In this document: piece after piece, positions 9,519-33,744 of the stretch
Layout: every line of letters begins with the position of its first letter
Numbering within the stretch: the stretch's first letter is position 1
NCBI GenBank assembly: GCA_010093815.1
Contig: ML996582.1
Strand: one strand, 5' to 3'
Source: Pseudovirgaria hyperparasitica
Lineage: Eukaryota
DNA length: 64,000 nucleotides
Program-made: the position numbers and the translations under genes
Notes under the pieces: generated by a model
The model's input: only the letters and a program-made list of their open reading frames with translations
The model's database searches: none
Told to the model about the DNA's origin: nothing

Positions 9519-9867
9519 AATTCTGGTGTGATTCCAGGCAGGGTAGGAGTTTGTTATGACTGTTTGGAGTATAAAAGATGATGAAAAACCTCCACCGAGA
9601 AGAGCCTCGAATATCTGCCGGTGTGGAATTCGATAGAGTTCTCTACAAACAACCACTGTGAGCAAACAAGCGAGCGACAGCGGCTCTGCAATATATATAT
9701 ATATATATCTACTACTACATACATACATGTAGTAATGCTGGGGGCATTATGTCATTTTTTTTCCATCTTCACCACCGACGCATCCACGCATAACATGCAT
9801 ATGCATACGCATACACGATAACAAGCTCCCCACTACATGAATCCGGATGGATACTGCTAGCATCACA

Positions 9868-10000
9868 TGTGGGATTCCTATTAGGTAATCCCCGTTACTT
9901 AGATCTTATTTAGCGTTAGGCTGGTATATATAGCACTTAGATAGACTTAGTAGACACGTTAATTAATTTTTACCACGTCTAATTTACTAAAGTTCCTATA
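9868..10000 (+). repeat. E1 5' LTR (133 bp)
   Basis: Matches 31839-31971 except 6 RIP-type transitions; followed after 2 bp by TAGTAGC (de-RIP TGGTAGC, tRNAiMet-type PBS). Confidence 0.95.
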
Positions 10001-10149: not shown

Positions 10150-13100
10150 ATAAGAACGAACCTAGAGTCTAACACGAAAACCCTTCTCTAAAGTAATATA
10201 TTCTAATTTCGGAGATAGAAATTACGGTAATAAAGCTTAATGACTAAATTCGATAGTCCTAGCGGATAGTAATATATTATAAAATAAGCTAAAAGAGTCA
10301 CGTAAGAAAAATATATATTAACTCCCTCTATATCCGCGATAAATATTCTAGCTACTTATTAATATAAATTAATACCGTAATTCTAACTTAGAAGATAATT
10401 ATTACCCTAGGAAACGCCTTCCTTACCTAAGCTATATTAAGATATCTTCCTTATAGAACCCCGATCGCGATAGCGACGTCTCTATAGAAGGAGCTAATAC
10501 TCCCTAAAATATAGGACGCGCCCGTAATAAGCCGTTAAATACTATTAACGCGCTTACCGCACTCCTTAATACTAACCCGGCTATAAGGGACCTTACTAGA
10601 GACGCTCGTACGTTAGTACTAATTAATATATATACTAATCGACTCGAGTTATAAATAAGGAACGACTATATTACTCGAGAAGAACTAGTAAGAGACTTTA
10701 ATAACCTCCTCCTTAATAACCCTAACCGGGCGAGCCTAGCTATACTAGTAAGAAGAGGCCGTATCCTACTCTAAGCACCTAATATATACTTAGGAGAAAC
10801 TAGAGATAACGCCTACGAGGAATAGTACTTATTAATCTAGAAATGGATTTATACCGTGGAATTAGTAGAGCGCTAGGAAGCTATACCTAAGTTCGAGAAA
10901 CTATAAATCTATAGAATATATATATTAAAGTATATCTATACCCTTTAGTATAGCCTTATAGAAGCCCATAGACGTAATAACCTAGATAGTCCTTAAATAC
11001 TAGACGGCTTTCTAGATATTATACGTTAAACGTATATCTCTACTAATCGCCCCGAATAGCGTAGAAAGAAATAGAAGAACCTTACTTAATATCGTTTCGG
11101 ATCTACCTTAAAGCTTATTAATACTATTATTAAAAAGGCACGACTTCTACGACCCATGCCTTCTAAATATAAGATATAGCGTAGAATTCTAGGCGCCCTT
11201 AAGTCTAAGGTTTAACGTAAGATCGAAAAGTAGCCCTTTTCTTCTATAGGATTAGAAGAGTAGTATCTATAGGTAAAGAGGCTAGAGGAAGCCTTATATA
11301 TCTACTCTAGAAACGAATACTATAGGCGGGAGGCTACTTATTATATTAATACTATATATTACTAAGACGAAGAGGAGGAACCGGAAGAATTCGAACCTTC
11401 TAAGGACTTATATATACGCGAAGATAAATTAGGCGACTACTCTAGAGACGAGGGTAAGCTCCACGCGTTTATAAAGCGTTAATAGAGTAACCGAGGCCGC
11501 GGTAGAGGCTAGAACTAAGGCCGAGGCTATGGTAAATACTAAGGAGGCTCGTTAAGAGCTCTTAATAAAACCCGAGAATACTTTAACTATAAGAAGTTAG
11601 GATATATCTCGAGATTCTACCCCGAAAATCCAACTCTAGGTAAGCTAGTCTATATTACTACTAAGGATGACGCGTTAAGCGTCTTTAATAAAGAGGCCCT
11701 AAAAGCTAGTCGCCCGTAGTAGATATAGAAGATACTACAAGCAACTATAAGAGCTTCTATACTAATAATACCGATAAAAATAAGATAAACACATAGAACT
11801 ATAAACATATTAACGCGCTTTACAAATCGCTAGAGAGTGTCTACTATTATTAAGAGGAGTTAACGGACGTTATCGACGATCGCCTCTATTAACTAAACTC
11901 TATTAGTAGATAGTTACTAGAACTTAAGGCTTACGTAGGGGAAGTCCACCCCTAGAGGGTTTTAGTCCTTATTAACTATAGGGCTAATAGAACGTATACG
12001 TTAACGAAGGTTACTAGGCGTCTAAAGCTAGTACCGTAACCTACCCCCGTAATACGTGTTAAGCTTCCGTTAGGAGCCCTAATAATAAGTTAAGAAGTTA
12101 TAAAAATCCCTCTTTATATGGAAAGCTTTACTTACGAAGTCTCCGCGAGAGTACTTAACCTTAAGGGCTATAATCTAATTCTAGGTTATAAATGGCTTTA
12201 TAAATAGGATCCCGATATATTATAGAGATCCTATTCCCTAGTAATTAGGAGGCTAGTAGCTTAAGGAAGGACTAAGGAGTATCTCCTTAAGGGGATTCCC
12301 GCGTTAATCGATATTAACTTATAAGGAGAATAAGTGCTAAACGTCCTTACCGCTAGCTAAGCACGGAAATAATATCTAAACGGCTATAAGTAAGGTGTAA
12401 TATGGTTCATTAGGAAAGATAACCCTCCTATACCATAGGCACCCGATCTAATACTATAAACGGTTTTAACGGAGTACTAGGACGTCTTTAAAGAAAAGCT
12501 ACCTAAAGGACTACTACCTTTAAGATAATAGGACTATAAGATAGATATAGGAGACGGCCGACCCGTTAATAACGCCGTCTACCGCCTCTCCCTAGAATAA
12601 ATTACTAAATAGTAGAAGTAGATATAGGAGCTTATCGAGCGAGGGCTTATCTAAGAATTAGGAAGTACCTAGGGTAGCCTAGTACTTTTCGTACCTAAAC
12701 CCGGAGGTAAATAGCGAATATATATTAATTATCGAGTACTTAATATACTTACGTATAAGGATACGACCCCTCTTCCGTATATAGATGAATACCTATATAC
12801 CTTCGGCTAGTTAATAGTGTTTAGTAAGATAGACTTAACCTTAGGGTTTTAGTAAGTACGAGTAGCCGACGAAGACGTCCCTAAGACCGCCTTTAACACG
12901 ATTTATAGTAAATACGAGTTTAAGGTAATGCCGTTTAGTCTATTAAACGCACCTACCACATTCTAAAAGATAATAAATCGAGTTCTTTAACCCCTACTAT
13001 ATAAATCCGTGGTTATATACCTTAATAATATTATTATCTTTTCCGAAGATATGGAAGAACACGCTAGAGTACTATTAAAAGTACTTACTCTACTCCGTGA

Positions 13101-14034
13101 ATACCGCTTACTTACTAATCCGGAGAAATATAGTTTTAGCTAGACCGAAGTTAACTTCTATAGACACTACGTCTTATAAGGATAACTTCGCCTAATAAAG
13201 AATAAGATTAAGGTAATTCGCGAATAGCTAGAGTCTATAAACGTTAGCGAAGTCTAATAGTTCCTCGGCCTAGCGAATTATTATCAGAGGTATATCCGGG
13301 GATTTATAAGTATCGCCGCACCTCTAATAGACCTCCTTAAGGAAGTAGACCCTCTTATCCGTAAATAGAAATATAGGCCTATTTAATAGACGCTGTTAAC
13401 GGCGTTTACCTTCAAGACCCTAAAGAATACCCTGTGTTCCGAACCGGTTCTAGCTTAACCTAATAAGACTAAGCCCTTCTATATTAAAATAGATATAAGT
13501 AACTATACGATCGGTATAGTAATCTACTAGGAGAATCCTAGTAAGTAGTATTAGCTAATCGCGTTTAACGGACGAAAGCTTAATAGCGCCGAGCTTAACT
13601 ATCCGGTTTACGAAAAAGAACTCCTTACTATTAAACACGCCCTACGCACTTAGGGATACCTACTAGGAACGAAGAAGACGACGATCCTAACCGATTACTA
13701 TAGCCTATAGTTCCTTAAGTCTATAAAGGAATAAGAAGGCCGTATAGATAGATAGATTGATAAGTTCGGAAGCTTTAATCTCGATATAAAATATCGCCTA
13801 GGATCTAAGGCGGTAGTACCTAACGCCATTAGTAGAAGGCTAGACTTCTAAGGCGAGATCTCCGCGATACCGTTAAGTAAAGTTAATAAACACGTTCTTA
13901 TAGTCTAAATTATTAAGTTCCTAAAAGGAGCCGACCCGATAGAGCATGTACTAAAAGTCTCTCCCGAAATCCTATCTCGACTACGCCTTAACGCCGAGAG
14001 TAAACTTCGATATAAGCTATAGGATTTTAATAAT
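10150..14034 (+). pseudogene. E1 gag-pol remnant (gag knuckle, protease, RT, RNase H); start approximate
   Basis: De-RIP CFNCKKLGHISRFC ~11579; VLIDCGA ~11965; FKVMPF; YLNN (=YLDD) 13018-13029; LNYPVYEKELL ~13594; many RIP stops. Confidence 0.9.
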
Positions 14035-17000
14035 TATAAGAATAGGGTAGTTGGATAGTAGTATAGCTAGATAGAACAATGGGGTGTATTCTATTATAGA
14101 ACGAATTACTACCAAACCCTTTCGGTAGGAATCCGAGAGTATATATATAAAGGGACGCCGATCTATCTAGCACGTAACTATTTACCGCCCTTCACGTTAC
14201 CTCCTAACCCTATTAGCTAAGGTACGTATAGGTCGGGTTCTACCTAAGGCTAAGTCCTAATAATTATTCCTTCTCTCTAGGAAGCTACCCTTAGTAACCT
14301 AGATTATTACCTATCTCTATACCCCTATCCTAAGTCTCGTAAGACCTTAGTTATTCTCTATACTTCGTCTTAGATACTTACCGATATTTACTAATCTAAG
14401 ATTTATATAAGTGTTTTCCTAATAAACTAGATTTTATCTATCTTAATTTCTTACATAGGTAAGATTACCTAATTAGGCCTAGCGTATCACGTGATGTGAT
14501 TAGGTAAGCCCGGGTACTACCTATATTAAAATCTTTTCTTAGAAATATTCCTTTCTTTAAAAAACTTCTTAACTCTTTATAGAGTTTTTTAGATTATTAG
14601 GTATATTACCCGATCCTTATAGACATAGATTTATATAGATTTACTATAATTTAGTGCGATTTATATAATTTACTAATTTTCGTGCTATCCTTAGCTAGTA
14701 ATAATATAATTCGTAATAATCCGTATAAATTAATAATAATTATAATATAGTTTCCCGAAATCTCAACGCTCTAAAGTAATTAGTACGGAAATAGACGCCT
14801 TCGAATAATCCCTGTCTCGCATATATTACCGACATATTAAAAGCTATCGATCTACCTCGACCTAGGCCGGGCTCTAATAATCTAGCTATATATTATTATA
14901 GTTATTACTTTCTATCATATATTACTTACGGCGGTACTAAATCTATAATATACGGTACTTATATAACTAAGAAGCGTTATTACTTATAGGTATTTAAGTA
15001 AGTTCGAAGAACTTTACGTAGATTTACTTATATTAGTATAGATTACTACTAGGCCTCTAGTAACCCCTACCAATAAGGAGCGTAGTACCACCAATCGCAA
15101 CACCTTAGAGAAGGCTTTCTACGAGCTATATACCTAAGGTAAGGGTTACGCCTAGGAGTACGATTCTAATAAGATCTATAAGGGTTTATCGGAATCTACT
15201 ATAGCTATTATTACCGCGATTACTAGGTAATATCGTTTTTCTTAAATCGTTATAGATTCTTACTAATATATATTAATCTCTATAATAGTGCTAAAATCTC
15301 TACTACTTCGGACTTCTTTCTATATACCGGCGATATTAAAATTCCTAGAAAAGGTTCTAGTAAAAAGGCTAAGGTTCCTTCCTCGCGCGTACTAAAGAGC
15401 CGTAAATTTAGGGAAGATAGCTCTAATCTAGAAGTTTCTATACTAAAGGTATATAGTTCTATACCGATCGTTGAATCTTTTCGCTGATTTATGTAATTCT
15501 TAGTATACTTACGCTGGTCTATCCCTCTCTATCCCGGGTCCCGCCGCTCTATAGGTTTCTATAGAGGAGTTTATAGCTATAAGGCGCGCTATATAGAATT
15601 TATAGCGTCGGAACGAAAGGCTAGAGACTTATATTATAAAGCTCTATACTATGCTAAATAAGAACCAGCGGAAGGAATTAGATGGAACCATCGCGGTAAT
15701 TAGTACTTCTACTCCTACTCCGACTTAATCGGTTTAGATCTATACTAATCGGTGCTAATATGTCTCTTTTATCTAGCGTTTTTAGTTTTTTTAGTTTTAA
15801 TTTTAAAGCGATCTTACTTCTTCTAGATAGATTAGTACGAGTTTATATAGATCTATATAGATCTTTATATTTTCTTTTAGCTTTCTTAATTTTATCTTTC
15901 TTTAATAATAACTTCTTTAATCTCTTTAGTAATCTATACTAATCTATACCAATCGGCACTAATTTTCGATGTCCATTTCTCTTAGTAAATTATTTTTCTA
16001 AGTCTCTTTTTTAGTTAAATTTTTAAAGTTCTAAGTTCGAACTTTCTAAGGAAGTTCCTTAATTCCTTAGAATGTTTTAAAGATCTATATCTCTTTCACC
16101 TTCTTCCTTTTAGGCGGCCATCCTTAGCGCCGAACTATACTAAAAAACGTCGAATCGCCATACTTTAGTATAATTCTCTACGATTCCGCGGCTTCCTTTA
16201 CTAATCACTACTTATATACTAATATCGCTACTTTACTAATGTTTATTATAGGTTCCTAAGTATCTTTATTAGGATTATATCCTTTCTAACGAATCTTATA
16301 TAGCTACGTGCCATCTTCGGCGCGTTACTAGCTAAGTATCTACTTAACTTCGTAGATATCCGCACCTCCTTACGTAACTACTTTATATAATGTCTATTCG
16401 GAACGATCCGGTAACGATAAGGCATAGAATGGCTCGAGAAGCGTAATATAGAATACATTATATATCTTTAACGTGGGAGGGAGTTTTAACTTATACGCCT
16501 AGTTATTAATTACACGAGTAACCTTAAATAGACCTATTATTATATAGTTAAGCTTCTTCTTCGGCCTAATACTACGAATATTCTTACTATTTAGTAAAAC
16601 TTTATCTCTAATATTAAAGATCATGGGCTTTCTACCCTTATTATAGTACGATTTACTATAATCTATAGTATCTTATAATAACTTTATAACGCTTCTTTAC
16701 GTTTAGAATAGTTCTATTATAATCTCCGTCGCCTTAACGTTAGGCTACTCTAATTTATACTAAGTTCCTATAAACTACGCTTTATGGTTTCGACCGAAGT
16801 TTACTTCGAACGGACTTACGTAGGTTAACGTATGTCGGCTGTTATTATACGCGAATTCCGCGACATAGACTAACCTTACCTAGTTATCTTACTTATAGTT
16901 ATAATATACGCGTAAATACGCCTTAATTATCTAATTCTACCGCTCTATCTATCTATCTATTTATAGGTAGAACGCGGTACTAAGTTTCCGCTTAATTCCT

Positions 17001-19312
17001 AGCGTATAGTAGAAATCCTTCTAAAACTTAGACGTTATCTACGGACCTCTATCCGAAACTATACTATTTAGTATACTATAGAGCCGAACTACGTCATGAA
17101 GTAGTATATCTATAAGATCCGGTACTTAGATCGTCTTCCTTATAGGGATGTAGTATAATATCTTCGTAAATCTATCTAGAACTATAAGTAAACTATTATA
17201 AATATACCTAAGATACTTACTTAGGGGTAGATCTATAATAAAATCCATCGATAATTCTTTCCATGCCTTATTTAGTATAGGCAATGGCCTTAATTCGCTA
17301 TATGGTAAGTATCTATATACTTTCGTATGCTAGTAAACGTTATACGTTTTTACGTAGTCCTTTATATACTTATAAAGACCTAGCTAGTCGTACGTCCTTC
17401 GGATTAAATCGACCGTCCTTATAACGCCGAAGTGTCCTACTAATGCGTAATCGTACTGTTCCCTTAAAACATTAATTTATAAGCTACCTTCCGGCACGTA
17501 GAGTCGGCCTTAGAAGTAGATCGCGTCCGATCGTCGTTCCCACCTTAATAACTATGGCGGTTCTATAGCGATTCCCTTTATGCTTATGACTTTCTTTACT
17601 AATATATTAGAATTCTAGGTAGATTTAATTAAGTCTTCGAGGATTTACTCTATTTCTTAGACGTTAGTTTAGATTACTTAATACCCGCTCTAATTCCCAC
17701 GGAGAGTCGCCGAAAGTGTCCTAGCTTCCGGCACTCTATTAGATAACTAGTCTTTTAGTATCTATAGTATAGTATAGTCTAAATTACACCGACTATCTAC
17801 GTTATTCTACGACGATTTCTCGTAATCTTCACGCCGTAATAGAGGATCTACTTTATTCTCTCTTCTAGCTTTATATAAGATTTTAAAGTTAAATATTAAT
17901 ATCTACTTAGCCTAACGTACTTATCGGCGATTAAGGACCTTAGTCGATATAAAGTAATATAGATTTACGTAATCCGATAATAATTTAATCTAATATATAG
18001 AGCCTTCTAAATAATGTCGCTATTACTTAAAACTCTTAATAATTATAAGTAGTTCCTAGTCATACGTGTTATAACGCGTCTCTATATCCACTATTTTACG
18101 GGAAAAGAAGGCGACCGGGTGCTATTATACCTTGTCTTTTACATCTTTATACGGTTAACTAATAATTCTAGTAATTACGAATCTAGATACGTCTATTTTA
18201 ACCCGAATATACTTCTCGGGATCGAAATATCTAAGGATTGGTATAGTTATAAAGTAATTCTTTAACGATTAGAACGTATCTCGCGCTTCCGGCGTTAACT
18301 ATATCTTAACTAACTCCGCTTTACGCTGTGCTCGCCCACCTATAGAGATTTTACCGCCATTTTTAGTGAGTTTATTAAGCGGCGCTGTAATTCGTAAGAA
18401 ACCTATAATAAATTTACGATAATAGTTTACGAAACCTATGAACGTCCTAATTTAACGTATAGTAGTAGGTTCTAGCCATTCTATAATGGTCTTAACATGC
18501 TCTGGCTCCATTTTAAGGCCGCCGTATATTATAATAAAGCCGAGAAACCTAACTTCTTATTAGTAAAACTTATATTTAGATAACTTTATATAGAGTTTAT
18601 ACTATCTTAAACGATTTAGCACCGATTTCACGTATTCTTCGTGATCCTATATACTATCGGAGTAAATTAGTATGTTATTAAGGTAAACTACGTAGATTAC
18701 ATTAAGTAATCCTATAAGTATAGTATTAATATATCCTTAGAACGCTCCTAGCGTATTTATTAGCCTAAACGGTATAATAGTATACTTAAAATAACTATAT
18801 CTAGTCCGAAATACGGTTTTCTATTTATCTCCGCGACGGATTCGAAGCCGGTAATATATATCTCGCAAATCTAGCTTTATAAAGTACTTTGCCTTCGTTA
18901 ATTAGTCTAAAGATTCACTAACTAATGGTAATGGGTGACGATTCTTCTTAGTTACTATATTTAGTGCTCGATAGTCGATATATAGACGTAAACTTCCGTC
19001 TTTCTTCTTTATAAAGAGAATAGGTATACTAGCTAATGACGTACTATAACGTATCTAGCCTCTTCCGAGATATTCTTTAATATATTTATAAAGAACTTCG
19101 AGTTCTAGTCTTGAAAGTAGATAAAGTAGACTATAAGGGACGTCTACTCCCTCTTCGAGCTCGATCTTTAGCTTATACAGTCTATGGTCGGGGAGAAGTA
19201 ACGCGTCTTCTACCGAAAATACATCCGTGTACTACGAATATACGTCGGGTAGCGTGTCTTTACCCCGATTGTTACTATCCTCTTCGTCTTCGTCGACGAT
19301 TAATAGAGATAT
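14035..19312 (-). mobile_element. E2: chromovirus (Gypsy with chromodomain), RIP-mutated, 5'-truncated, nested in E1 pol
   Basis: Putative 3' LTR 14035-14262 (TATAAG...CCTAATA) followed by reverse-complement PPT; on - strand RT (YLNN 18674-18685), RNase H, integrase, chromodomain (YEVK.IL...YKIRWKGY....DTWEP ~16230-16360); gag, protease and 5' LTR absent. Confidence 0.88.
14747..15728 (+). pseudogene. E2 antisense accessory gene, 4 exons, ~270 aa, Cys6 zinc-cluster-like motif plus C-terminal coiled coil (RIP-mutated)
   Basis: Exons 14747-14989, 15042-15226, 15289-15448, 15504-15728 join in one frame via GT-AG introns; de-RIP PCLAC...CGTCITKKRxCLQ|I; start ATA read as RIP-mutated ATG. Confidence 0.7.
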
Positions 19313-19550
19313 TATAATAAGTAAAGACGTAGAATAGTAGTCTAATAGTTCATAGAGAGACATAGAAATGTATTTATAGAGTAGTCTTACTCTTATACGA
19401 GGTTGATTCCTAACGAGTAGGAATCGGTTTATACGGTCCACTTATATAGTAACCTCGCTTAACCTAGCTAACTTATTCTAGCTCTAGCCGCTACGTGGCT
19501 ACATGGATTAGAATAGTCTATATAGGTCCGTTAGGGTTCCCGTCCTAATA
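19313..19550 (-). repeat. E3 3' LTR (238 bp)
   Basis: Direct repeat of 27099-27336 differing by transitions. Confidence 0.95.
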
Positions 19551-20029
19551 ATATTCTTCTTCTTTTTATACTTCGCCCCGAAGCACTTAAGTATATATAA
19601 TCCTAAGTCTCTATAATCTACTATATATCTATATATCCGTAACTAAGTTTCTATAACGTTATAACTATTCTTAATATAGGTAAACTCGAGATTCTAGTTT
19701 ACTTTTACTAGTTTATACACGCGCTTATCCCTTACTTTATAGCTACTACCTAGGACACGTAATTACTACTTTAGTTAAGTATATATTTAGCTTCGCTCGC
19801 CTTTGATTTTATTCTCTAGTATATCCACCTCGCTCTTAAGGTAAGTCGTTAATTCATATACTATCTTCTCTAGTTTAGGTTTAGAAGGGTCTATTATGGT
19901 CTATTCTTATTAGAACCGGTCCTATATAACCTATTCGCGTTATTACGGTTACTAATTTAGCTTCGTTAATTACCGTTAAGGGTAGACGAATATTCCTTCC
20001 TTAGATCTCTAGCTAATATATATATATAG

Positions 20030-21345
20030 ATGTCTAATACTAGTCCTATCTCTAAGCCTGCCTCCTCCTCTCGTAAGACTCGCTCTAAAGGTATTACCTC
20101 CTCCCCGGCCACGCTAGCTAAGAAGCCTACCTATTAAGATAGTATAAAGGCGCGCTCTAAGTCGGAGAAGAGGGTAGCTAGGGCTACTACTACTACTTCT
20201 ACCTCTACTACTAATATAGCTACTAGTCGCTCTAATCTAGGTAATCCTAGTACTGAATTTATGGATAAAGCGGTCGTAAGTTCTCCCCTTACTCTAACGC
20301 GTACGCCGCCTACTCTACCTCCTCTAGAGGATAAAGAAGATCTTATTATAGATGATAATCGCGAGCCCTCGCGCTTACCTACGCCGCCGCCTCACCGCTC
20401 TCCCTTCCAGTCTAACATAGACCAATTTAGTTACTCTAGGTCCTTTTAGGACCTTAATATTCGCTCTAAACCCTAGCCTACTAATAATAAGACCTAGGTC
20501 GCTAAGGATACTAAACGTAGTCGCGGTTTACGCCATAGGAAAACAGCGAACTACAGTTTAATATACTATAAGTATATTAAGGGCTATACGGCCGGCTCTA
20601 AATATCTCTTTCGCTCTAACTCTAGTATTAGCTACTACTCTACTAACCGCGACGGGCCTATACACCCTATCTTTACTCTACCTACCCGCTACCGCCACTA
20701 TACCATAACTAGTAAGACTTATCTATAGGTAAGTATAATAGGCTATCTTAGTCTAGTATAATCTAAAGTTATCCACGCTAATACATTCTTAGATTCCTAT
20801 ATATATATAAGATATATATAACGACCTTCGCGTCCGCGAGACCCTCGGGGGTCCTTATAGCTATCTATCTACTATATAGAGGGAGTTTAGAGAGCGCTAT
20901 AAGCTCTTCCTAGAGGTTATTAAAGTATAAGTTATAAACACGTTAATTATTTTTAACACCTATTAATATTTCTAGCCGCCGCGAGATCCCTAGCGCCTAG
21001 GCTACCTATTCTAGAGAGTCTATCCTAGCTATAGAGACCGTAGAGAGGATTCGCTCTATCCCCTCTTATCCGTCTCACGCTACTAACAGATCTTATAAGA
21101 GGTCTACTATTTCTCCCTCTAAGTCGCCTCATAAGAGGGTATATATTCCCTTCTAGATTATTCTAGATCATATTAGCTAACTTTAGACCTAGTCGCTGCG
21201 CTCCGGCGCTTAAGGCTCTTCCCTCTAGGCTCTAACGGATTAGATTATTACTCTAGAGGCTAAGGTCATTACCCTCCACCACTATATCGTGCAGTTAGAG
21301 AGAACTATACTAGAGGTTATAACGGATAATAAGATAGAGGAGTAG
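20030..21345 (+). pseudogene. E3 antisense accessory gene, 4 coding exons, ~384 aa, S/P/K-rich N-terminus, Cys6 motif, C-terminal coiled coil (RIP-mutated)
   Basis: Intact ATG at 20030 directly after a 5'UTR intron 19841-20029 (GTAAGT..GCTAAT..TAG); introns 20729-20792, 20927-20975, 21139-21186 keep one frame; de-RIP CxKC...C...CRHCTMTGKTCLQ|IP. Confidence 0.75.
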
Positions 21346-21899
21346 CTCTATGGTTCTAGCTCTATATATTAGCTCTATATATTCTAGATCTACTATAGAT
21401 AGTGCGCGCCGGCTCTATTTACCTAGCTTTTATCCATTTTAGTCCTTTTTTAGACCATTTAGATACCCGTCGACTAGTTTCTAGTAATTTAATTCTTAAC
21501 TTAACAATATTATATATACGCTCGCTTAGCTTATAACTATCGGTTTCTACATTCTAATTTTCCTTAAGTTACCTAAGTATAGGCACCATATATTAATTAG
21601 TTTATCTCTATAAATTCTATTAGAGTACCCGAACTAGTAGCCTAGTAGTTATTAGTTCGGGTACTCTAACCTTTTATATTTTATATTAAGAGTTTAATTC
21701 TATAGTAGGGTACCTTTTTTAGGTTCTTAGTCCTATATTTTTCTCGTGTATAATAGTCCATATTAGTCTATTCTAGACTCTTCTATTATAGTATATCGCG
21801 TCGCGTTCCTAAAATAGTTACTTACGCTTTCTTCGCGTCTAGTAACCGTATAATACTTAAATTATAGGGCTACCTTATAGAGTTTTCCTAGTACGCGTC

Positions 21900-24800
21900 T
21901 AGATTTCCTAATTAAGTACTTCGTTCTCTACGGCATCCTTCTTCTTTTTATAACGACCGCGACGTCGCTATATTTACATTAATAATACGCTATTCTATAT
22001 CTTTTACTTATACACAGCCATTATAGAACTTAAGATATATACCGCTAGTTCCTAGGTATCCTCGTCCTTAGTGTAGTCCTTCTAATAGATTCTATATTTC
22101 TAAACACCGTCTTTATCAATTCTATATTCGATAATATAGTCCACTTCAAACACGTCTAGTCTATCTTAGGGTATAATAGAGTGTAACTATACGTTCGTGC
22201 GGTTATACACGTTAGATCAAAATCTTTCGAGTAGTAAGACGTGAAACACATTATAGATTCTTATATCGCTTCCTAAGTCGAGCTCGTAGACTCTTATACC
22301 GATATAACGTTTAATTCGGAAGGGACTAGCCATTTTATAATCGAGCTTCTTATTTACTCGCGATATTCATATATTACGGACGTTAAGAAGGACCTCGTCG
22401 CCCTCCTCATACGTCTAATCCTTAGCTAACCTATTATAGTACTTCATATACAAGTCGTTTACTTATTAGATTATAGCGCAATAGTTACGTACGGTTTTAA
22501 AGATTTTAATCACTAATTCCTAAGCGTAGACGTTCACGTCTATTATTCGATTAAATTAGACCGTATAAGGCTTAAAACCTATCCTTAGACTACGTCCGAG
22601 GTTCGCCTAGAAAGGTATAATACTAGTCATACTATAACGACTATTATTATATACGAACTCTACTATACTTAGTAGGGAGGCCTAGTCATCCTACTCAAAA
22701 TTATAGAATACGCGTAGGTAGGCTTCGAGCATCTAGTTCTATCGCTCTATCTAGCTACCCATCTAAGAATAAAATACTATAGACATATTCCTATTTATAC
22801 TTACTATTTCGTAGAATAACGTCTAGAATTTAGACGTAAAGGTACTTCCTCAGTCCATAACGATCCTTTTTAGTATACCATAGACCTTAATAATCTCGTT
22901 CTAGAACACCTACGCTAGTTCTTTAGATGTAATCATCTTCCATACCGGGATATACCTAGATATCTTTATAAGTCTATCCACAATAATAAGAATAGAATTA
23001 TAACTTATTCTAAGTATCTCGCTTAGAGATAAGTTAACTATAAAATCCATAGTAACGTCTTCCTATATAAAGAGAGGGACTAAAAGAGGCTATAAATTCC
23101 TATATAGCTTATGCCTAGGGGCCTTCATTCTTTAACAAATCGGATAAGTAGCTATCTATTCTTCGACGTACTTAGGTATATCTTCCTAAAAATAGTACTA
23201 ACGAATTAAGCTTAGGGTACATATATACCTAAAGTATCCTACTAGGTTAGCGTTATAGTATTAGCTAACTATATTAAATCACGCGTTACCCATCAGCATA
23301 TAGTACTTTCTATTATAGTAAAGTAAGCCGTCCATGAAGGTCTACTTATAGTCTACTTTAGTCCATAATAATCTATCTTACTATATTTTACATAACTTTA
23401 AAACTATCGGGTCTATCTTCTATAGATCCACGATTAACTAGACAAGGTTAATTAGATATTCACGCCGGGTATTATCGCCCTTCCCAATAGCGCTAATAAA
23501 CGGCCTACTAGGGACTTCGGTACCGCGTCTTTAGTTACCGGCTTCGGTCTTAGAGATTCGATTACCGGCATCAACGTTAGTATCTCACTAATCACCTAAT
23601 AACTTAAAATCTAACCTCATCCTCAAGAGTTAGGCCTATAGCTACTCTAGAACCCTATAGCTACTATAATCCTAGGCGCCTTCTTTATAGTTAGGTCTTC
23701 TTAATATTCTATTAGCTAGGTTTATACTTCTAGATCAATAGTAGATTATAAAGTAAAAGTTCGTAAGCTACTTAGCCCATTAAACCTATTAACGGTTTAA
23801 AACCATCATGCTTATAAACCCCTTTAAGTTATAGTAATTAGTTAGTAACTCAACGTTATACATGGCACCTTTAAGATAATATCACCACTATTTAAACGAC
23901 TCTACTATTACTAGTAGCTCTTAGTTATAGATAGTATATCTAGTCTTAATATCGACTATTTTACGCGAGAAGAATGTAACTAGATACCATTAGACCTTTT
24001 TAGACTTAGTTAGTCTAGACTAGAAGAGAATACCTAAGATTATAAATCCTAACGCGTTAGTTTTAACGTAGATAGATTTAGTTAGGTCGAAGTATACTAG
24101 TAATAGGGTAGTAGTAAATACCTCTTTGATTTTCTTAAAGAAGGCCCTTTCGCCTTCCGATAATTCTATAGACTATAATTTAATATTATACTATTTCTAT
24201 CTACCGCGGACCGTAATAGACAAATCTATAGTAGTAGTACACGCGTTAAGCGGTACTACTAGCCGGGAGAAGTACTTAACAAATTTTCAGTAGTAATTAG
24301 CGAATCCAATAAAGACACGTATATCTCGAACCAATTTTAGTTTAGGCTAGTCCACAATAGTAGCAACCCTATCCCTTTCTATAGTTATACCTTAATTAGT
24401 AATAACAAAGCCAAGGAAGTTAACGTAGTCCTAGTGGAACTCATATTTAGATAGCTTAATATATAGCTTATATTTTTCTAGCCTATCTAGGACTACGCGT
24501 ACGTGCTAGATATATTCTTCTTCATTATTAGAGAAGATAAGAATATCATTAAGGTATACGATACACGTCATATCAAGTAGGCCTACTAGCGCGTTATTAA
24601 TATACGCTTAGAAGGTCCCTAGCGCGTTAGTTAGTCTAAAAGAGACCACTATATACTCAAAGTATCCATAACGGGTCCTAAACGCCGTTTTCCACTCATC
24701 GCCCTTCTTAATATATAGGCGGTAGTAGACGTCACATAGATCGAGCTTAGTAAAGATCTTCGCGCGCCCTAGTCTATTAATAGACTCAGAGATAAGAGGT

Positions 24801-27076
24801 AGTAGATAACAATTCTTTCATATAATATTATTTAGGCTACAGTAGTCAATACATAGACAGAGACTCCTATCCTTCTTCTTTATAAAGAGGATTAGAGCTC
24901 CGGCTAGGGATATACTAGACCTAATCTATCCTCGCGTAAGGTTCTTTTCGATATATTCTCAGAGGACCTATAGCTTAGGTTCTAATAGAGGGTAGATAGG
25001 TCCGTATAGGGGTTATTAACTATCCTCAAGGTTAATAGTAAGATCAGTAGATTAGTATTAAGGTAATTCGGACGAGTCAATCGCTAACGCGATATATTAG
25101 TATATTTTATACTAATATAGTAGGTTTTCGTCCACTTTAATACTAAGTTCTCTATTTTAAGTAAGTAAGAGAACGTAGATAGTAGAGATTACCTTTTCAT
25201 AGTCCTTCTAGAATTATTCGTCGTCAACTAGCTATACTAGGTTCTATTATAGTAGGTGCATACGCTAGCCAGCTATTTTCTAGATGAAGTCTAGTTTCGG
25301 GTTATATTTTTCAAGCTACGGTATACTAAGAATCATATCAAAGGGGCTATCTACCACGATAAAGGTTAAGTAGTAGAGTTTCTACTTCCCCCCACTATCC
25401 TAGATACCATATTTAATAGTATAGATACCCTACGATTTAATAGGACCATCAATACTATAGAAGGTAGTATCTATTAGTACTTAAATATCAACATTAAGTT
25501 CTCGTGCTCATTAAGTCGATATAACGTTAGTAGCTAAACTACTATCAAGTATTACAGTCTAATGTTATCCACAGGGGACCTTAATAGGCCTAGCCTATAG
25601 TTTAATATACTAGTTAGCTAGTTATCCCTCTATTTTAGTTACGCCTATAAGTCGCGAGGGTTTCTTATAGGTAGTTAGTTTTTTATATTATATACCGGGT
25701 AGTTAGGCGCGATATATCCTAGCTACTAGCACTTATAGTATATAACTAACTTAGTATCTATATTAGTATTCAGTAGTTTCCTAGAGCGGTACTCGGGTAC
25801 TATATAGCCTATCCTACCATAAGTATAGTAGGTAACTTTAGGTTATTTATACGAGTCGTTTCTCGCGTCTCGATATATTAACCGGTAGGAAGATCTACGG
25901 TACGGGCCTCGTCCTCTTAAGTTCATAGAGTAGTAGTACCCACAAGATATTCCGCGCGATCTATTACTAAACCAGTCCTCTTTAGACGATTTCGTATTAG
26001 ATTAGATTAGTAGGGATAGTCGTGCACCTATACGGCGTTAGTTATTTATTATACGCTAGTATCGTTCTATAAGATTCACGAGTACCTAAAGGTCAGTAGA
26101 GATAGACGTTATAAGATTAATACGTTCTTTTACACTCGGATTAAGGGACCTTTTAAAGTTATCATATTATCAAACCATACAATCTTCCTTAGCTTCTCTC
26201 TAGAGAGGTCGGAGGTATTCAAGGAGTTATAACGGGGATTATCTTTCTCGCTATTAAGTCTTAAAGATATAGCTCTAAGCCTATTCGCGTCGCTCGGCTC
26301 TATCACTAAAGCATTAAAGAAGGAATTCGGTGAACATATCCTAGTTATACACATCCTTAGGGTATTTAATCCAATATACTATCTAACGTTTAGATAGCGT
26401 TAGATCTAGGTAGTTCTATACGAACCTAATCTTATTACTATCGTTCGTAAATAGATAGAAGAATTAGCTATACTAGTAAGCCTATTTATAAAAGCTCTTC
26501 CTAGTTTTACCATCGAAGTAAGGTAGTTTCTTAGGCTAAGGTAACTAGGATAGTAATAGACTTAGTTAGACTATTTCGGCTTAAGTTAGTCTATATTAGT
26601 ATAGGTTAGTTACTACTAGTACTAAAGCGCGTAGTACGGCTTCGAGTCTAGCGGTTTATCCTTATACTTCGTCGAGTTCACGAAGTTACTATTTAAGCTA
26701 AGCCTAACGCTATCTCTCCGCGTGTAGCCTAGTATATATATTATCGTGAGGCGTAGTTAACGTTAGTCGGTTCTAATAAATTAGTTTATTAACGTTAATA
26801 GGGTCTGGTCTTATAGTAAGGATAGGTCTAGTATAGTATAAACTAGACCGCGATAGAGTATAATAGACTCCTTCCTTATTATCTAGGTAGTCTTCCACGG
26901 TTACATGGAATACCGTACTAGTTATTAGTATAATAGCTTATAGGGTATACTTATTAGTAGAGGTGGTCGTAGGGAGACTATTCTCCTCGTTTAGATTTAG
27001 GGAGAGTCTCTCGTAGGAGGTCGTGCCACGGGTATTATAGCGTGTAGTAGGAGCTATCTCTATAAGCTACCGTCAT
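21900..27076 (-). pseudogene. E3 gag-pol remnant; 3' end approximate
   Basis: Probable gag ATG 27076; slippery A AAA AAC 25678-25684 just before the gag stop; pol domains in the -1 frame. Confidence 0.88.
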
Positions 27077-27098
27077 ACTATATAGGGAGGAATTAAAA

Positions 27099-27336
27099 TA
27101 TAATGAGTAAAGACGTAGGATAGTAGTCTAATAGTTCATAGAGAGATATAGGAATATATTTATAGAGTAGTCTTACTCTTATACGAGGTTGATTCCTAAC
27201 GAGTAGGAATCGGTTTATATGGTCTACTTATATAGTAACCTCGCTTAACCCAGCTAACTTATCCTAGCTCTGGCCGCTACGTGGCTATATGGATTAGAAT
27301 AGTCTATATAGGTCCGTTAGGGTTCCCGTCCTAATA
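27099..27336 (-). repeat. E3 5' LTR (238 bp)
   Basis: Repeat of 19313-19550; TATATAAG on - strand at 27227-27234. Confidence 0.95.
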
Positions 27337-29070
27337 GGTATTAACTTTATAGATATACTCCCCACTACGTATAACGGTAATAGTTAGATAATAATAGTAA
27401 TTAACTACGTAACGGGATGGCCTATCGTATAGGTAGTCCCTAAGGCGACCGTAGAGTCCGTCGCGAGGTTTATTTATAAACGAATCTTTATAGATTTTAG
27501 ACCCCCCGCCGCACTAACCTTAGATAACGGTTAGTAGTTTCTATTAAGAGTGGTTAGCGCACTACTACGTATCCTTAAGACGGAATATAAACTTACTACG
27601 CCTTATTACCCTCGTATAAACGGAAAGGTTAAACGCCTTAATAGAACCTTAGAAGGTATCCTTACCCGTATATGTATAGGCGAACTAGTAACTAACTAGG
27701 ATATATACTTACTAGCCGCCGTTTTCGCCACGAGGATCCGACGATATAGAAGTATAGAAGTTAGTCTATATTATCTAGTATATAGATAGTACCCTAACTT
27801 ACTAGGGAATATTCCTAGAGAAAAGGATAAGTTAATATCCTTTAACGAACTTATTAAGTAAGTTAAGAAAGTATAACACGCTAGGACACTAGCGCTAAAC
27901 GAACTACTTATGGAAGCCGCTCGCCGAGACCTTATAGATCCGACTCGGCTTAAACCTAAAGACTAGGCGCGACTACCTATCGGTTAAATCATTTTACTAA
28001 AGAATAAATAGAAAACGAAGTTTAAAACGAACTACTTAGGTCCCTATAAGGTTCATATATAATACCCCTTAGATATATACGCGCTAGAAACACCTAACGG
28101 ACGTATTCTACGATACCTTATATATGGTAATAGACTAATTACGGTAAGAGGCATTAATAAGCTAGATAACTTCTAGACGAGATAGGAGATTAACTTATAA
28201 ATATCTAAGGAAATTAGGAATTAAGTGGCACCTTACTTACTAGATATCGAGAAGGTTTTAGAGAAAGAGAAACCTACCCTATATTAGACGACTCTATCCT
28301 CCCTTCCTAAGAAGGAGTAGAACCGGCTATAGTAGCTACGGAGTTAACGAGAGTTAACGTACGAGGGCGTATATTCGTTCTTAGTAGAGGAGAGCTCGAT
28401 AGACGTAGATATTACGCGTTAAATTAGGCTTACTAATATAAGAAATCGACGTAAACGGAGAGCTACCGTAACTACATTAATCGTACTAGTACTAATCGTT
28501 ATTAACAAACTAAGAAATATACTAGAAGAATAACACGAGAATAGTAGAGTAATATAACTACTAATAATAAATATCGAAGAGAGCTACGATACTCTAAGGG
28601 TAGAGGAAGCCTAAACGATAACTAAGAAACTAATAGATAATCTATTAAACGAGATTAACACGGTAGAGGAAGCCATGATAGAAGCGAGATAGAAAGAATT
28701 ACCTAAAGAAATAAGCTTAGGAGACGAGTTTAATAATACACGAATAGACTTAGATAAGGATGTCTAACTAGAATATAAGAATTCTATAAGTATAGATATA
28801 GACTTAGATATAGAAGAAGTATTAAAGAAGGTTAATAAAGTAAATAAACAACCCCTAACCGACTCGGACTACCCTATATAGAATCTTATAGAAAGCGAAC
28901 CTTATACGCGAAAGAGAAAGCGATTCTATATAGATGAACGTAGTAGAGAAACCTAAGCGGCTATAGCTAGCGCGTTAAGATAAGTTAATAGATTAGAGGG
29001 AGAGAGGTACTCTCTACGGAAAAAGATATTACCTTCGAAGCTATTATAGGAAAGCTTAGAATATAACTAA
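27337..29070 (+). pseudogene. E1 integrase catalytic core and acidic C-terminal tail; end approximate
   Basis: De-RIP GIDF..LPTT, IDY.TGWP, LTSDNG.QF, TTPYHPR.NGKVERLN, YLGPYKV; no chromodomain seen. Confidence 0.88.
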
Positions 29071-29339
29071 CTTTAGTCTTTCCCTAATTATCTCCTTTAT
29101 ATATAGTACTACTAACCCCCTATTTACTTATTTAGAATATATACAGCTATTAAAGAAGATTAACGAGTCTTAGAAATTACTAGGAGGTTAAAGAAAGAAG
29201 ACGTGGACTTATAATAACATTATATAAGTCTAAAATTACTATTTAAGAACCGTAAGACTAAATAGAGATAAAAGAAAGCCGTTAACGCCTTTTAACGCTT
29301 AATAAGATAGAGTATCATTATAAAATAGAAGCCGCCTAC

Positions 29340-31456
29340 TTAGTCCTAGACCTTACGAGTAGAATTTAGTAGATTCTTTATAAATTATACTAATACCTTC
29401 TCGCTCTCCTCGGGCATGCCATCGTTAATTAAGAACTTATATAGTAGCCCTTAAGGCGTGTAGCTAACCTTACTAAACGCGTTTATCGGACGACTAAACT
29501 AATCTTTAACGGCTTCGTTAAGCGGAAGTCCTTTATCTTTAAGGTCCTATATAGAATAAATAGGGATAATACTCGGGTCGGGAGATATAGTATTATTAAA
29601 GCTAGGAACGAGGACCTCCGGACCGCCGTAATACATCTATTCTATTATAGCTATAACCTTTTAATTAGCTAGAGATTATACGAGATATAAATCTAACTCA
29701 CGAGTAAAGGACTAGCCTTAGAGTTTAATCTAGTCTTCTTAAGACCTAATAACTTCTTTTAACGAAGTTTAGTAGCCGAATACTTTCTAGTAGCCTTAGT
29801 TATCTCTATAAATAAAGACTACTCGGTACGTTAGCGCTTTTTAATAATATTACGCTCGCTACGGTATACTATAAGAACGCGTTAAACCTATTAAAAGCCT
29901 TTAACGATATAAAGGAATAACTTATAACGCGATATACTATAGAATTTCCTATTCTCTTAGTGGAAATAGTTTAAATAGGTACCTTTAAATAGTAGGAACC
30001 CGTTAGGAAAAAGCTATATACACTCCCTAAAGATACCTTTACTAGTAGAATAAGAACTATAGGCGCTATCGCTAAAGTACTAGTATACGCCGCGAGCTAT
30101 TATGCCTAGGATAGCCGGAATAGTATAGAGATACGATCTATCTAGGCGTTTCGAAGGATCCCGAAAGATCCCTCCTTCTACTATAATATTCTAAGAATAA
30201 TAGTAGTTACTAAACTTATCCGTTATATAGAACGGAAGTAGATTCTTCGGAATCGAGGCGTGCTAACTACTAGCGTACGCCTTAATAAGGCTATCGATAA
30301 ATTCCTTATAGAGTATTCCGTTAATAGAAGGGTCCGAGAATAGCTACCCTAGGATAAGTTAGCTAACCGTTAAAGATAATTAATAAGATAAGGACTTACT
30401 CTAGTAAGCTAACTACTATATAAACTTAATAGACTTCCCTAAAAAGAAGTAGTAATTAGATCGAACTCGGAGGCCTATATAATCTACTACTTTAATCTTG
30501 GCATTACTATAGCTATTAAGTTTATTTACTATAGGTTACGCTATCGTACTAACCTTATAAGAAGCTATAGACCCCTTTCGCTTTACGGGAGTCTTCTTAA
30601 CGACCTTATTAGGACTTTTAAGGTCTATAATAGCTAGCTTAGAAGTTATAGAGCGAGTTTTAGGGCTATTAAATACCTTTAATAGAGTCCTTATAGTACT
30701 ACGGGTCTTTACTAGAGTCCTAGGTATTCTAGAACGAGAGCCTAGATAAGAATTAGGAACTAGAATCTTAATATAAGACTTAGCGACTTACCTTTCTTAG
30801 TTACCTTAGAAGTAACTATATCGCCGAGCTCGTTAACTTCGATTAACGTATTACTATCGAGGTCTAATAACCTAGAGCTTTCCCTATCTTTATTTTTAGG
30901 ATAGAAAATATTATTAGAGTCTTCCGATAGGTTCGCGAACCGACTAGCTTTTATAGGGGCTTCGAAGGGCTCGTTAAGGGTAATTAATATAGACTCTAGA
31001 CCCGTAACTTTACCTAGAAGATCTATATAGATTAGCGGGATTCTTATGGAAGGGTATATTAAATAAATCACCTTCTACCTTAGGAAGAGGCTCGTTAATA
31101 GCTATTACCGATCCTTAAGAGGCCGGAGCCTTAACTTTAGCCTTAGAGACCTTAGGTTTAAGGCTCTAACCGCCTTCTTCGATTAACTAAGCTAAAGCTT
31201 TATCTTCTAGATCTAGTTCTTAAAAGAATAGCGAACTCTAAGGCCCGTTTAGATATAGATAGCCGTAGGCTATCTTTAAGTAACTCTTACGAACTATATA
31301 GTTAACCTATACTTAAGGAATAAGGTAACTTAACCTACTATCTAGAGTACCTTTATTCGCCGCTAATACTTTATTAAGTAATAACTAGTTAGAATTTCTA
31401 TATAGAGGACCTAAGAAAGCACGACAAAGATCCTCGTTTATAACTATATCCGCTAT
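29340..31456 (-). pseudogene. E1 antisense accessory gene, 6 exons, ~620 aa, DUF3716-like Cys6 domain (RIP-mutated)
   Basis: Introns 31023-31071, 30742-30791, 30349-30399, 29869-29925, 29658-29701, most with GTRAGT-like donors and CTAAY branch points; de-RIP CSSC.TGKGIFRECIQ...KGAC.NCFHQEN.KFCS at 29936-30061; gene ends uncertain. Confidence 0.72.
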
Positions 31457-31838
31457 AGAAAGTTTAAGTTAGAAGGGAAAAAGGTAAAGTTAAAGTTTAT
31501 ATATATAAAATTATAGTATTAATCGGAGTAATTTCTAAGTTTATAGGAGTTTTAGCTATATTATTAGATATTATTAAAAGGAATTAGCGCTGGAAAAACT
31601 AAGGAAAAGATTAAATTAGTTAAGAAATATAAGGTTAAAGGATAGTAGAATATAGGAATAGTAAAGGTAACTATTTAGTACTAAAATAAGCTTAGACTAC
31701 CGCCCTTACGTGACGTATTGCTAATGCGGCCTAGCGCCAAAGAGATTTCACATATCTACCTCCCTATATTATATATTCTAACTCTATTAATCGTCTTTAA
31801 CGGCCTCGTAGAAGCTTATATAATTAGAAGGGGGAAGA

Positions 31839-31971
31839 TGTGGGATTCCTATTAGGTAATCCCCGTTACTTAGATCTTATTTAGCGTTAGGCTGGTATAT
31901 ATAGCACTTAGATAGACTTAGTAGACACGTCAATCAATTTTTGCCACGTCTAATTTACCAAAGTTCCCACA
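31839..31971 (+). repeat. E1 3' LTR (133 bp)
   Basis: TG...CA termini, preceded by PPT, followed by the CACA TSD. Confidence 0.95.
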
Positions 31972-32144: not shown

Positions 32145-33744
32145 CATGCATGGCATGGCATGGCATGACTCGCGAAGCAAAGGCCGTTTCCTTCCGAGGC
32201 CAGGTCGTCGGGACTGAGTGTGGTATGGTTCTATATACCTTAATCCGACGTGGCTGACTGACCGCATTTCTTTCGTCTGTTCATTTAGCATCCATAGAGC
32301 AGCTACCGGCCAATGATGTACTCGGCATCCGTCGATACAGACGTAACGCTGAGCTCATGTTGGCGTGCTTGATATGTTGGCCCAAGCCATGAATGTAGTA
32401 GACTGGCGCCTCGTCGCCAGTAGGTTAGCCATCCATCGAATGGAAGAGCTAGCCAGCATAGAACCACAGTACCGACATCGCAGAAGACAACCATGAAAAA
32501 AGGAAACCCCATGAATCACGAGGGGAGGAGGCACGCCATCCATCCACCCATCTATCCATCCATTCACCACAAAATCCCAGTCAAGCCTAATATCCACCCA
32601 CACACAACACACACACACGCACACACAACACACACACACGCACACACAACACACACACACGCACACACAACACTCACGCGCGCAAACCACAAGATCCACC
32701 CACGCCATGCACAAAAACCCCATCACACCGCAAAACACAAATACACACCTCTCTCAAGCCTGCAGCCAGCCAGTCCATCCATCCATCCTTCATCCATCCA
32801 TACACCCCAAAAGCATAGCTAGCATAGCATAGCATAGCATAGCATCAATCAAACCCGTCCGATTCTCGCAAAACCCGACCGCCAAGCAACACAACCGCCA
32901 AGCAAACCCGCCCCATCTTCCCTCCCTCTCCCCTTCTCTTCTCCGACTCTCCCTACCAAACACCCTACCGAAAAGGGTGGGCGTTCCGGGCAAAAAGCCA
33001 AAAAAGAAAAACATGACAAAAAAGAAACAAATAGTGCACAACCGCGTTTCCGAAGGTATATGTTTTCTTTTTTTTCAATCTCTCGCCTTGGGGATGTGTG
33101 GCTGGCTGGCTGGCTGGCTAGCTAGGGAAGGAGGGTGGAGGTTGGAAAGGATGAGGAAAAAAGAAAAGGATAGAGAATGAGAATGGACTTTTGAAGAGAG
33201 AGAGAGAGAGAGAGGGGGGGGGGGGGGTTCTTTGCCTTGGTTACTTGCGCTTTTGGTACTATGTGATTAATGCTGATTAATGCTAATTAATGCTGCTGCT
33301 GATATTCGGTTTTTCTGTGGTGTTTGTTATAGTTCTTTTTGTGTAGCTCTCTACTTCTCCTTCTCCTTCTCCTTCTCCTTCTTCTTCTTCTCCTTCTCCG
33401 TTCTACATCTTCACCCACCACATAGCATAGTTTTCCCCCAGAGAACAGAGACCACGCACGCCCCAAACACCACAGAGCGAAGTCCGAGACGGCAAACATC
33501 CACCTCTCCTCCTCTCTCTCTCTCTCTTTCTCCCCCAAATAGTACTAACAAATAGGTCGTCGGAAAAGGATAAATCATTTTCTTTTCAAATTCCCTCCCC
33601 CCAAACCCCTACTACCGTAGAATAGTATAAAAAAAAGGGGCCATTGTGCCATGTGTAATTGTATAATTATCATTTGGGTTTCCTTTCTAGCTTTTTTGAT
33701 CGTATCAGTTCAATTCACGCAATCGTTTCTACGACACCATATAT

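Follow-up and report, generated by a model that had tools for sequence, protein, structure and literature searches.

Some retrotransposons of the Ty3/Gypsy type carry an extra gene on the strand opposite pol. In Boty, an element of Botrytis and Sclerotinia, an antisense open reading frame (ORF) named brtn lies between pol and the 3' long terminal repeat (LTR). It was published in 2011, and the available portions of two reports trace it to Zhao et al. 2011, Virology 417:248 (PMC8365987, PMC7264820). An element resembling Boty, with both brtn and a chromodomain, is described in the excerpt of a further report (PMC4227169). ORFs in the same antisense position, after pol and before the 3' LTR, are also listed for the plant elements Grande, RIRE2, Retand, and PvRetro13 (PMC7264820). 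As far as the accessible text goes, most copies contain such ORFs, which generally lack database homologues and are in some cases nuclear; no function is known for them, and the roles proposed are those of a protein or of an antisense RNA (PMC8365987, PMC7264820). We analyzed a 64,000-nucleotide stretch, hereafter the window, of contig ML996582.1 of the fungus Pseudovirgaria hyperparasitica (assembly GCA_010093815.1). It holds three nested Ty3/Gypsy elements, E1, E2, and E3. In the E1 and E3 families, and probably in the E2 family, pol and the polypurine tract (PPT) are separated by an additional module. We suggest, with moderate confidence, that these modules are the relics of lineage-specific, now dead antisense additional ORFs of the kind known as brtn in fungi and as aORF-3R in plants.

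Boty is, in the portions of the reports at hand, a fungal Ty3/Gypsy chromovirus with an extra opposite-strand gene between pol and the 3' LTR, the layout that we propose for the elements described here. It has gag, protease, reverse transcriptase, integrase, and a chromodomain, and its likeness to the modules is one of layout, not of sequence comparison. Unlike Boty, the window contains three families with three unrelated modules, all of them dead through repeat-induced point mutation (RIP), and the E3 module is bracketed by a PPT duplicate. No protein named brtn was among the database matches of the E3 ORF or the E1 stretch, in searches that were not aimed at brtn. The plant aORF-3R (maize Grande gene23, rice RIRE2, Silene Retand, and Phaseolus PvRetro13) share the position and the proposed antisense orientation; the accessible part of the review gives them as present in most family copies, without homologues, with their own promoter, and with a suspected nuclear regulatory or antisense-RNA role (PMC7264820). 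They belong to a different kingdom, and no sequence relation to our modules is expected. An antisense promoter is also reported, in the same excerpt, in the 3' LTR of human T-cell leukemia virus (HTLV) (PMC7264820). The antisense genes of HTLV, as far as that text describes them, share with our modules the concept of an element factor made from a separate transcript, and there is no sequence, domain, or functional link. The plant VANC proteins, which are anti-silencing proteins, likewise share the concept only, with no sequence, domain, or functional link to this locus. Among the papers listed by our literature searches, none described a retrotransposon-encoded Zn2Cys6 protein or antisense ORFs in fungal chromoviruses beyond Boty. 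An earlier note on this DNA had known of no characterization of such a system. A lack of earlier characterization is not supported, as the Boty gene was already in print and the plant equivalents have been reviewed, to judge from the accessible text (PMC7264820).

In E3, pol lies on the minus strand and runs from the protease region to the chromodomain (22001-25543, by Pfam; the chromodomain end at about 22001 was placed by translation). The 3' LTR is at 19313-19550 on the same strand and is 95% identical to the 5' LTR at 27099-27336, which abuts E1. Beside the 3' LTR is the PPT, a purine run on the minus strand within an 18-mer at 19553-19570. The extra DNA between pol and the PPT therefore spans 19571-22000, or about 2.4 kb. 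On its plus strand, antisense to pol, there is a frame of 232 codons (20030-20725) that starts with ATG and contains only four stops. We compared this number with 2,000 dinucleotide-preserving shuffles per stretch, taking as P the fraction in which any of the six frames was equally low. The shuffles had 18.6±3.8 stops, and none of the 2,000 reached the observed value in any frame. The three frames of the stretch have 4, 12, and 40 stops. This stop deficit withstands any reasonable correction for the choice of window. The frame ends in TAG and is directly followed by a 64-nt intron-like element (20729-20792, plus strand) that begins with GTAAGT, has a branch-like GCTAAT, and closes with a TAG acceptor. 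The encoded residues are 15% Ser, 13% Thr, 9% Pro, 9% Arg, and 8% Lys, with an isoelectric point of 10.4 and a basic patch of the KRSRGLRHRK type.

In E1, which lies on the plus strand, the extra DNA extends from about 28160 or 29200 to 31822. It is thus 2.6-3.7 kb long, the recognizable pol end at about 28160 having been judged by eye. It stops at the PPT (31823-31837, plus strand), a purine run directly before the 3' LTR (31838-31967, plus strand). The antisense (minus) strand of this module has three consecutive low-stop segments. Segment b (30792-31074) is stop-free: the 104 codons of 30763-31074 have no stop, compared with 9.8±2.8 in the shuffles (P 0.0005). A 50-nt intron-like element at 30742-30791 (minus strand; GTAAGT, CCTAAT, and TAG) joins segment b in phase to segment c1 (30400-30741), with GGC as the junction codon. 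There is one stop in the 108 codons of 30419-30742, compared with 12.4±3.1 (P 0.0005). A second intron-like element of 51 nt (30349-30399, minus strand) leads to segment c2 (29900-30348, minus strand), which has 6 stops in 149 codons, compared with 12.8±3.1. This second element may instead be coding, as a weak alignment to SWI1, described below, passes through it. With the 50-nt and 51-nt elements removed, the antisense model has 358 codons and 10 stops, and the unspliced stretch has 391 codons and 29 stops. On a codon model trained on pol, segment b scored +0.131, compared with +0.012 for its shadow on the other strand and 0.035-0.088 for pol frames in cross-validation. Segment c1 scored +0.011 (shadow, -0.046), and segment c2 scored +0.045, with a higher value for its shadow (+0.068).

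The third module is the weakest. E2 pol lies on the minus strand from reverse transcriptase to chromodomain (16229-19303; Pfam RVT_1, RNase H, Integrase_H2C2, and SH3_Tf2-1, with rve and Chromo below cut-off); gag and protease are missing. The outer end (14226-14746, minus strand), between the break in E1 and the start of the module in the earlier note, is presumably the 3' LTR. Its inner limit was not established, and E2 has no 5' LTR with which to pair it. The extra DNA (from 14226 or 14747 to 16228) therefore amounts to at most 1.5-2 kb, and part of it is necessarily LTR. The frame antisense to E2 pol (15227-15705, plus strand) has 159 codons and 4 stops, compared with 14.3±3.3 in the shuffles (P 0.004). 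It has an isoelectric point of 10.2 and no Cys, and no ATG was seen in frame when the translation was read by eye. No intron-like element in the E2 module matched our splice pattern. Thus, the module that the earlier note had placed between pol and the 3' LTR in all three elements is there in E3 and E1; in E2 it shrinks to this upper bound with an undefined LTR limit.

In each module, the strand opposite pol shows strong three-base periodicity and few stops and looks coding-derived. The E3 frame 20030-20725 and the E1 stretch 29900-31074 both lie between the pol end and the PPT. The antisense frame had fewer stops than the aligned sense frame in E3 (4 versus 10), in E2 (4 versus 10), and in both tested parts of E1 (0 versus 3 and 1 versus 5). 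For comparison, true pol frames have about 3-8 stops per 100 codons, and other frames have 8-19. The stops are TAA or TAG in all four cases of the E3 ORF and in all 12 of E1 29900-30742, which agrees with the earlier claim that the stops of the antisense frames are exclusively of these two types; the E2 frame also has TGA, so the claim does not extend to E2. The antisense strand call is only moderately secure, because it is drawn from a modest but consistent stop asymmetry together with the ATG and the splice-like signals. Overall, the earlier proposal of a coding-derived antisense strand appears partly supported: the stop deficits make a good case for E1 and E3, and a weak one for E2. All of these frames, read from mutated DNA, suggest products that are basic, Ser/Thr-rich, and largely disordered.

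Several observations weigh against antisense genes, beginning with the frames themselves. The windows tested by shuffling were picked after inspection, so the P values flatter the result. In an unbiased scan, 100-codon windows with at most two stops occurred on both strands of all three modules. Low-stop windows also lie opposite true pol or gag (13701-14033, 22277-22585, 26014-26400, and 27609-27962). Because such low-stop shadow frames are common in this RIP-shaped DNA, the strand is unproven. On the codon model, the E3 frame (-0.053) and the E2 frame (-0.019) do not resemble pol. Beyond the E3 intron-like element, the in-phase frame is closed, with 11 stops in 120 codons, and the best frame downstream of it (20794-21153, 4 stops in 120 codons) requires another acceptor. 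No canonical intron connects a further E1 segment, a (31470-31012), to segment b. Both strands of 9997-31837 contained seven intron-like elements (pattern GTRHGT, CTRAY, and YAG; 44-75 nt), compared with 4.8±2.4 in simulations, which is not above chance. Finally, the view of the copies in the public contigs described below took in 40 of 1,141 variant positions, which did not show whether the ORFs are conserved among copies.

Some of these points fit a different reading, in which the sense strand is the coding one: pol would be followed by an extra ORF, env-like or of another kind, that casts the antisense frames as shadows. In E3 pol, a true frame with 81 stops faces an aligned opposite frame with 84, so a shadow can be almost as open as the frame that casts it; the low-stop windows on both strands of every module point the same way. 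In E1, a fairly open, Lys/Glu-rich sense frame continues for about 300 codons past the integrase-like part (28300-29200; 19 stops, compared with 31.7 in shuffles); pol may have a long extension at its C terminus here. However, in each of the four segments no sense frame has as few stops as the antisense one. Read in the sense direction, the E3 stretch gives an implausible string rich in Arg, and the ATG and the GTAAGT-to-TAG signals are on the antisense strand. We therefore consider a sense-strand ORF improbable.

Other points against antisense genes concern their products. The E3 ORF yielded 442 candidates from a 5.8-billion word-indexed protein set (127-406 aa), none of them at an E value of 0.01 or below. 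Pfam gave no family in any of nine antisense frames at E≤1. AlphaFold single-sequence models of the two main pieces were unconfident (mean confidence, pLDDT, of 34 and 48, the latter for E3), and the protein atlas gave no usable match for two uninterrupted ORF pieces. Among 1.84 billion representative proteins, E1 29900-30742 matched a single one at E≤0.001, and we discounted it. This match, P0005, is a plant Ty1/copia fragment with an E value of 1.4e-7, which arises because a match of 57-67 residues is repeated five times in tandem. A nested Copia element in the E1 antisense stretch was rejected: a reverse transcriptase-RNase H profile built from 69 of 119 fetched proteins, with 438 chunks scored, gave 30523-30428 a score of -1.7 bits (E 21). 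Other Copia profiles, one from 21 full-length but poorly aligned proteins and one from three proteins, gave nothing above noise.

The lack of homologues could also mean that there is no gene at all, and that the low-stop frames and splice-like signals arose by chance from the skewed, RIP-shaped composition of a long 3' untranslated region. The post hoc windows, the chance-level number of intron-like elements, and the low recognition scores in the protein atlas (1077 and 1535) are in line with this. What speaks against it is the E3 stretch, with a stop count that no shuffle reached and an extreme asymmetry among its frames, and the E1 intron-like element that falls exactly at a frame junction and restores the phase. 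We see little probability in an origin by chance. The exon chains with introns claimed in the earlier note thus stand in part: among the seven intron-like elements, one terminates the E3 ORF and another joins two E1 frames in phase, but their overall number is at chance and E2 has none.

Returning to the modules as relics of antisense genes, the surroundings of the E3 module hint at its origin. A second copy of the PPT-bearing 18-mer lies at 21935-21952 on the minus strand, about 50 nt past the end of E3 pol, and is identical to the first at 17 of 18 positions. These two are the only matches in the window at up to two mismatches, and 0.00 were expected from 100 shuffles. The E3 module is therefore flanked by two copies of the 18-mer, which suggests uptake at the PPT. 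No duplicate of the E1 PPT was found.

The modules also appear to travel with their families. Contigs from four coded public runs were aligned to 19551-31837 with a threshold of 80% likeness, and 26,332 of the records placed came from one run, X1. Its summed depth, which is not equal to copy number, was 120,000-185,000 over the E3 module and 94,000-322,000 over E3 pol; for E1, it was 2,500-5,200 over the module and 2,600-4,100 over the integrase part. Long contigs that reach the unique flank had a depth of about 300. Runs X1 and X2 contain a great many contigs of the E3 family and several of the E1 family. The similar depths of module and pol suggest that the modules belong to, and travel with, their families. 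X3, a different sample with the same species label, holds a contig of 9,033 nt (depth 755) that runs colinearly with E1 27337-30691. The window has A or T opposite a G or C of this contig at 171 positions, compared with 59 differences in the opposite direction; the contig is therefore a less mutated copy that also carries the module. Between 30259 and 30642 it is shorter than the window by 51 nt, and the missing piece may or may not be the second intron-like element. A 6,345-nt contig of X4 (depth 412) is also colinear with E1 and much less RIP-mutated. These two contigs may come from an active or expressed E1 copy. Single contigs link the LTR end to 22261 or 21469, bypassing the E3 module, and look like rearranged copies without it. 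Two further comparisons did not help: every other copy has G at position 20139, an uninformative change from Asp to Gly, and a 30-letter end of an X3/X4 contig (16/30 identical to the window; 8/30 with T or A in the window and C or G in the contig) is too small a sample to use.

An insertion-like module that is amplified with its element could be a mere passenger, that is, a captured host-gene fragment or an old nested fragment with no role in the life cycle. The bracketing of E3 by the duplicated 18-mer and the lack of any relation among the three modules are what one would expect of passengers, and E1 may hold a diverged piece of a SWI1-type subunit of a chromatin remodeler. When E1 29900-30742 was searched against PDB sequences with phmmer, query residues 62-183 matched yeast SWI1 (7egm_B and 6uxv_B; E 0.007, 19 bits), with a TAG opposite Gln within a Q-S-K-x-L stretch, in the alignment that passes through the second intron-like element. 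As a control, this DNA was also read in two wrong frames, neither of which gave a match at E≤1. A positive control, the E2 integrase-chromodomain region of equal length, found Ty3 at about 1e-13 and remote integrases such as that of foamy virus at 0.007-0.03, similar to the value for SWI1. However, the match is borderline after nine PDB searches and was gone when only the downstream half of the stretch was searched. It had no Pfam support, and no SWI1-like protein at E≤0.001 was found among the 1.84 billion representatives. We regard the SWI1 match as a weak lead. The retention of the modules through amplification, E3 being very abundant, fits a retained function as well as it fits hitch-hiking. 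A passenger origin is therefore possible but, in our view, rather unlikely. We give considerably less credence to a bolder proposal, in which three unrelated Gypsy families independently gained an intron-bearing antisense gene in the same slot and that of E1 is a diverged SWI1-type core serving as a decoy or helper against silencing.

The earlier note had gone further and read all three modules as encoding homologous, stretched Zn2Cys6-like DNA-binding regulators or anti-silencing factors, with Tyr codons taken as former Cys codons. Cys-to-Tyr change by RIP does occur here: when the E2 and E3 translations are set by eye against the H2C2 motif, Tyr stands at Cys positions of the integrase zinc finger. 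Nevertheless, Cys is nearly absent from the products: there is none in the E3, E2, E1 b, and E1 c1 ORF pieces and one in E1 c2. The E3 frame has 13 Tyr codons. Across the six frames, 7-9% of residues are Tyr and 0.4-0.7% are true Cys. With Tyr counted as Cys, the half-motif C-x2-C-x6-8-C occurred 70 times in the six frames, compared with 73.9±9.3 in simulations, and the stretched full pattern had 23 start positions, compared with 33±8. With either Tyr or Cys accepted, 21.8 kb read in six frames matched the canonical spacing, C-x2-C-x6-C-x5-12-C-x2-C-x6-8-C, once, and 0.37 matches were expected. That sole match (14897-14983) is a Tyr-rich low-complexity stretch in the end region of E2. In pol-pol alignments of the three elements, Tyr was paired with His in 13 cases, with Cys in 4, and with Phe in 20. 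Tyr is therefore not a reliable sign of former Cys, because it pairs more often with His. In the E3 candidate, about 50 residues separate the two halves, which is too far for a binuclear cluster. Pfam searches of four ORF pieces at E≤10 gave no Zn_clus match; three were empty, and one had an irrelevant FimV_N match (E 0.23). The resemblance to Gal4-type Zn2Cys6 clusters is a loose one that requires Tyr to be read as Cys.

A system common to two Gypsy lineages, as the earlier note had proposed, is also contradicted by the relation among the modules. They have no DNA similarity, and after correction for composition no frame pair showed protein similarity (best E 1.6). The pol genes, which are mutated to the same extent, do align: E2 and E3 are 40% identical over 1015 residues, and E1 pol matches E2 pol at E 2e-49 and E3 pol at E 5e-35. 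We therefore consider a shared zinc-cluster regulator highly improbable. Because the three modules are mutually unrelated, each family would have gained its own.

If the modules are relics of antisense genes, each gene would have had a promoter of its own, located immediately within the 3' LTR, and would have been read toward pol. Its introns, being antisense in the genomic RNA, would have been kept through retrotransposition; we judge this part of the earlier argument to be sound. The E3 module may have been taken up when reverse transcription or recombination went wrong at the PPT. The products could have been small nuclear helpers or regulators of the element that bound nucleic acid or chromatin. 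Alternatively, the antisense RNA itself may have damped the element.

The nest in which the modules lie forms an AT-rich block at about 10,000-32,000, with a GC content of 0.32-0.42, compared with 0.45-0.68 in the flanks, and its DNA is RIP-like throughout. E1 (9867-31967, plus strand) is interrupted by a 13.1-kb insert (14226-27336) that consists of E2, truncated at its 5' end, and a complete E3 (19313-27336), both on the minus strand. Two LTR pairs delimit the nest, and the mismatches in both are transitions only. The 130-bp 5' LTR of E1 (9867-9996, plus strand) is 97% identical to its 3' LTR, with four differences. LTRs of only 130 bp are unusually short for a 9.5-kb Gypsy element. The reverse transcriptase and RNase H of E1 are at 12691-13767 on the plus strand (RVT_1, E 2.6e-19; RT_RNaseH_2, E 1.7e-22; stops read as X). 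The E1 frame breaks off at 14225/14226 and is taken up again at 27337. The second part of pol (27337-28160, plus strand) is integrase-like by eye only; Pfam gave nothing there at E≤0.001, and its placement comes from frame continuity across the repeat and colinearity with the 9,033-nt X3 contig. The insert is surrounded by a 5-bp direct repeat, GGTAC at 14221-14225 on the left, where the E1 frame becomes senseless after 14229, and GGTAT at 27337-27341 on the right, across which it runs on. The two copies resemble one target-site duplication, though the left end of the insert is E2 and the right end is the E3 5' LTR. E2 lacks gag, protease, and the 5' LTR exactly up to the E3 border.

On the minus strand, the frame of 14701-27400 with stops read as X holds two sets of Gypsy pol domains (RVT_1, E 2.7e-40; RT_RNaseH_2, E 2.7e-32; Integrase_H2C2, E 8.1e-12; SH3_Tf2-1, E 1.3e-24). 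The rve (30.1 bits) and Chromo (23.7 bits) matches are slightly below the Pfam curated cut-offs. A search of PDB sequences with the E2 integrase-chromodomain region found chromodomains at 3.5e-06 and the Ty3 Gag-Pol at 9.7e-14. E2 and E3 thus have reverse transcriptase, RNase H, and integrase in Gypsy order and a C-terminal chromodomain, which places them among the Ty3/Gypsy chromoviruses. The LTR pairs, the PPTs, and the Pfam pol domains on both strands bear out the nested Gypsy elements of the earlier note. The copies of E1, E2, and E3 in the window are dead through RIP-type mutation. Outside the nest, a 21-nt CA-rich tandem repeat of about five copies (32574-32697) lies about 600 bp beyond the E1 3' LTR, at the jump in GC content. 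The gene-bearing flank has a very GC-rich stretch at 46001-47000 (0.677).

As things stand, the copies in the window are dead, their proteins are without relatives, and the idea of a zinc regulator fails. If the modules did derive from true antisense genes, having a further gene behind pol would be a common feature of fungal Gypsy elements and not a peculiarity of Boty. The duplicated PPT of E3 hints at how such genes get picked up. One of the families reaches very high abundance in this genome, and unmutated copies, if found, could reveal the role of the proteins or antisense RNAs.

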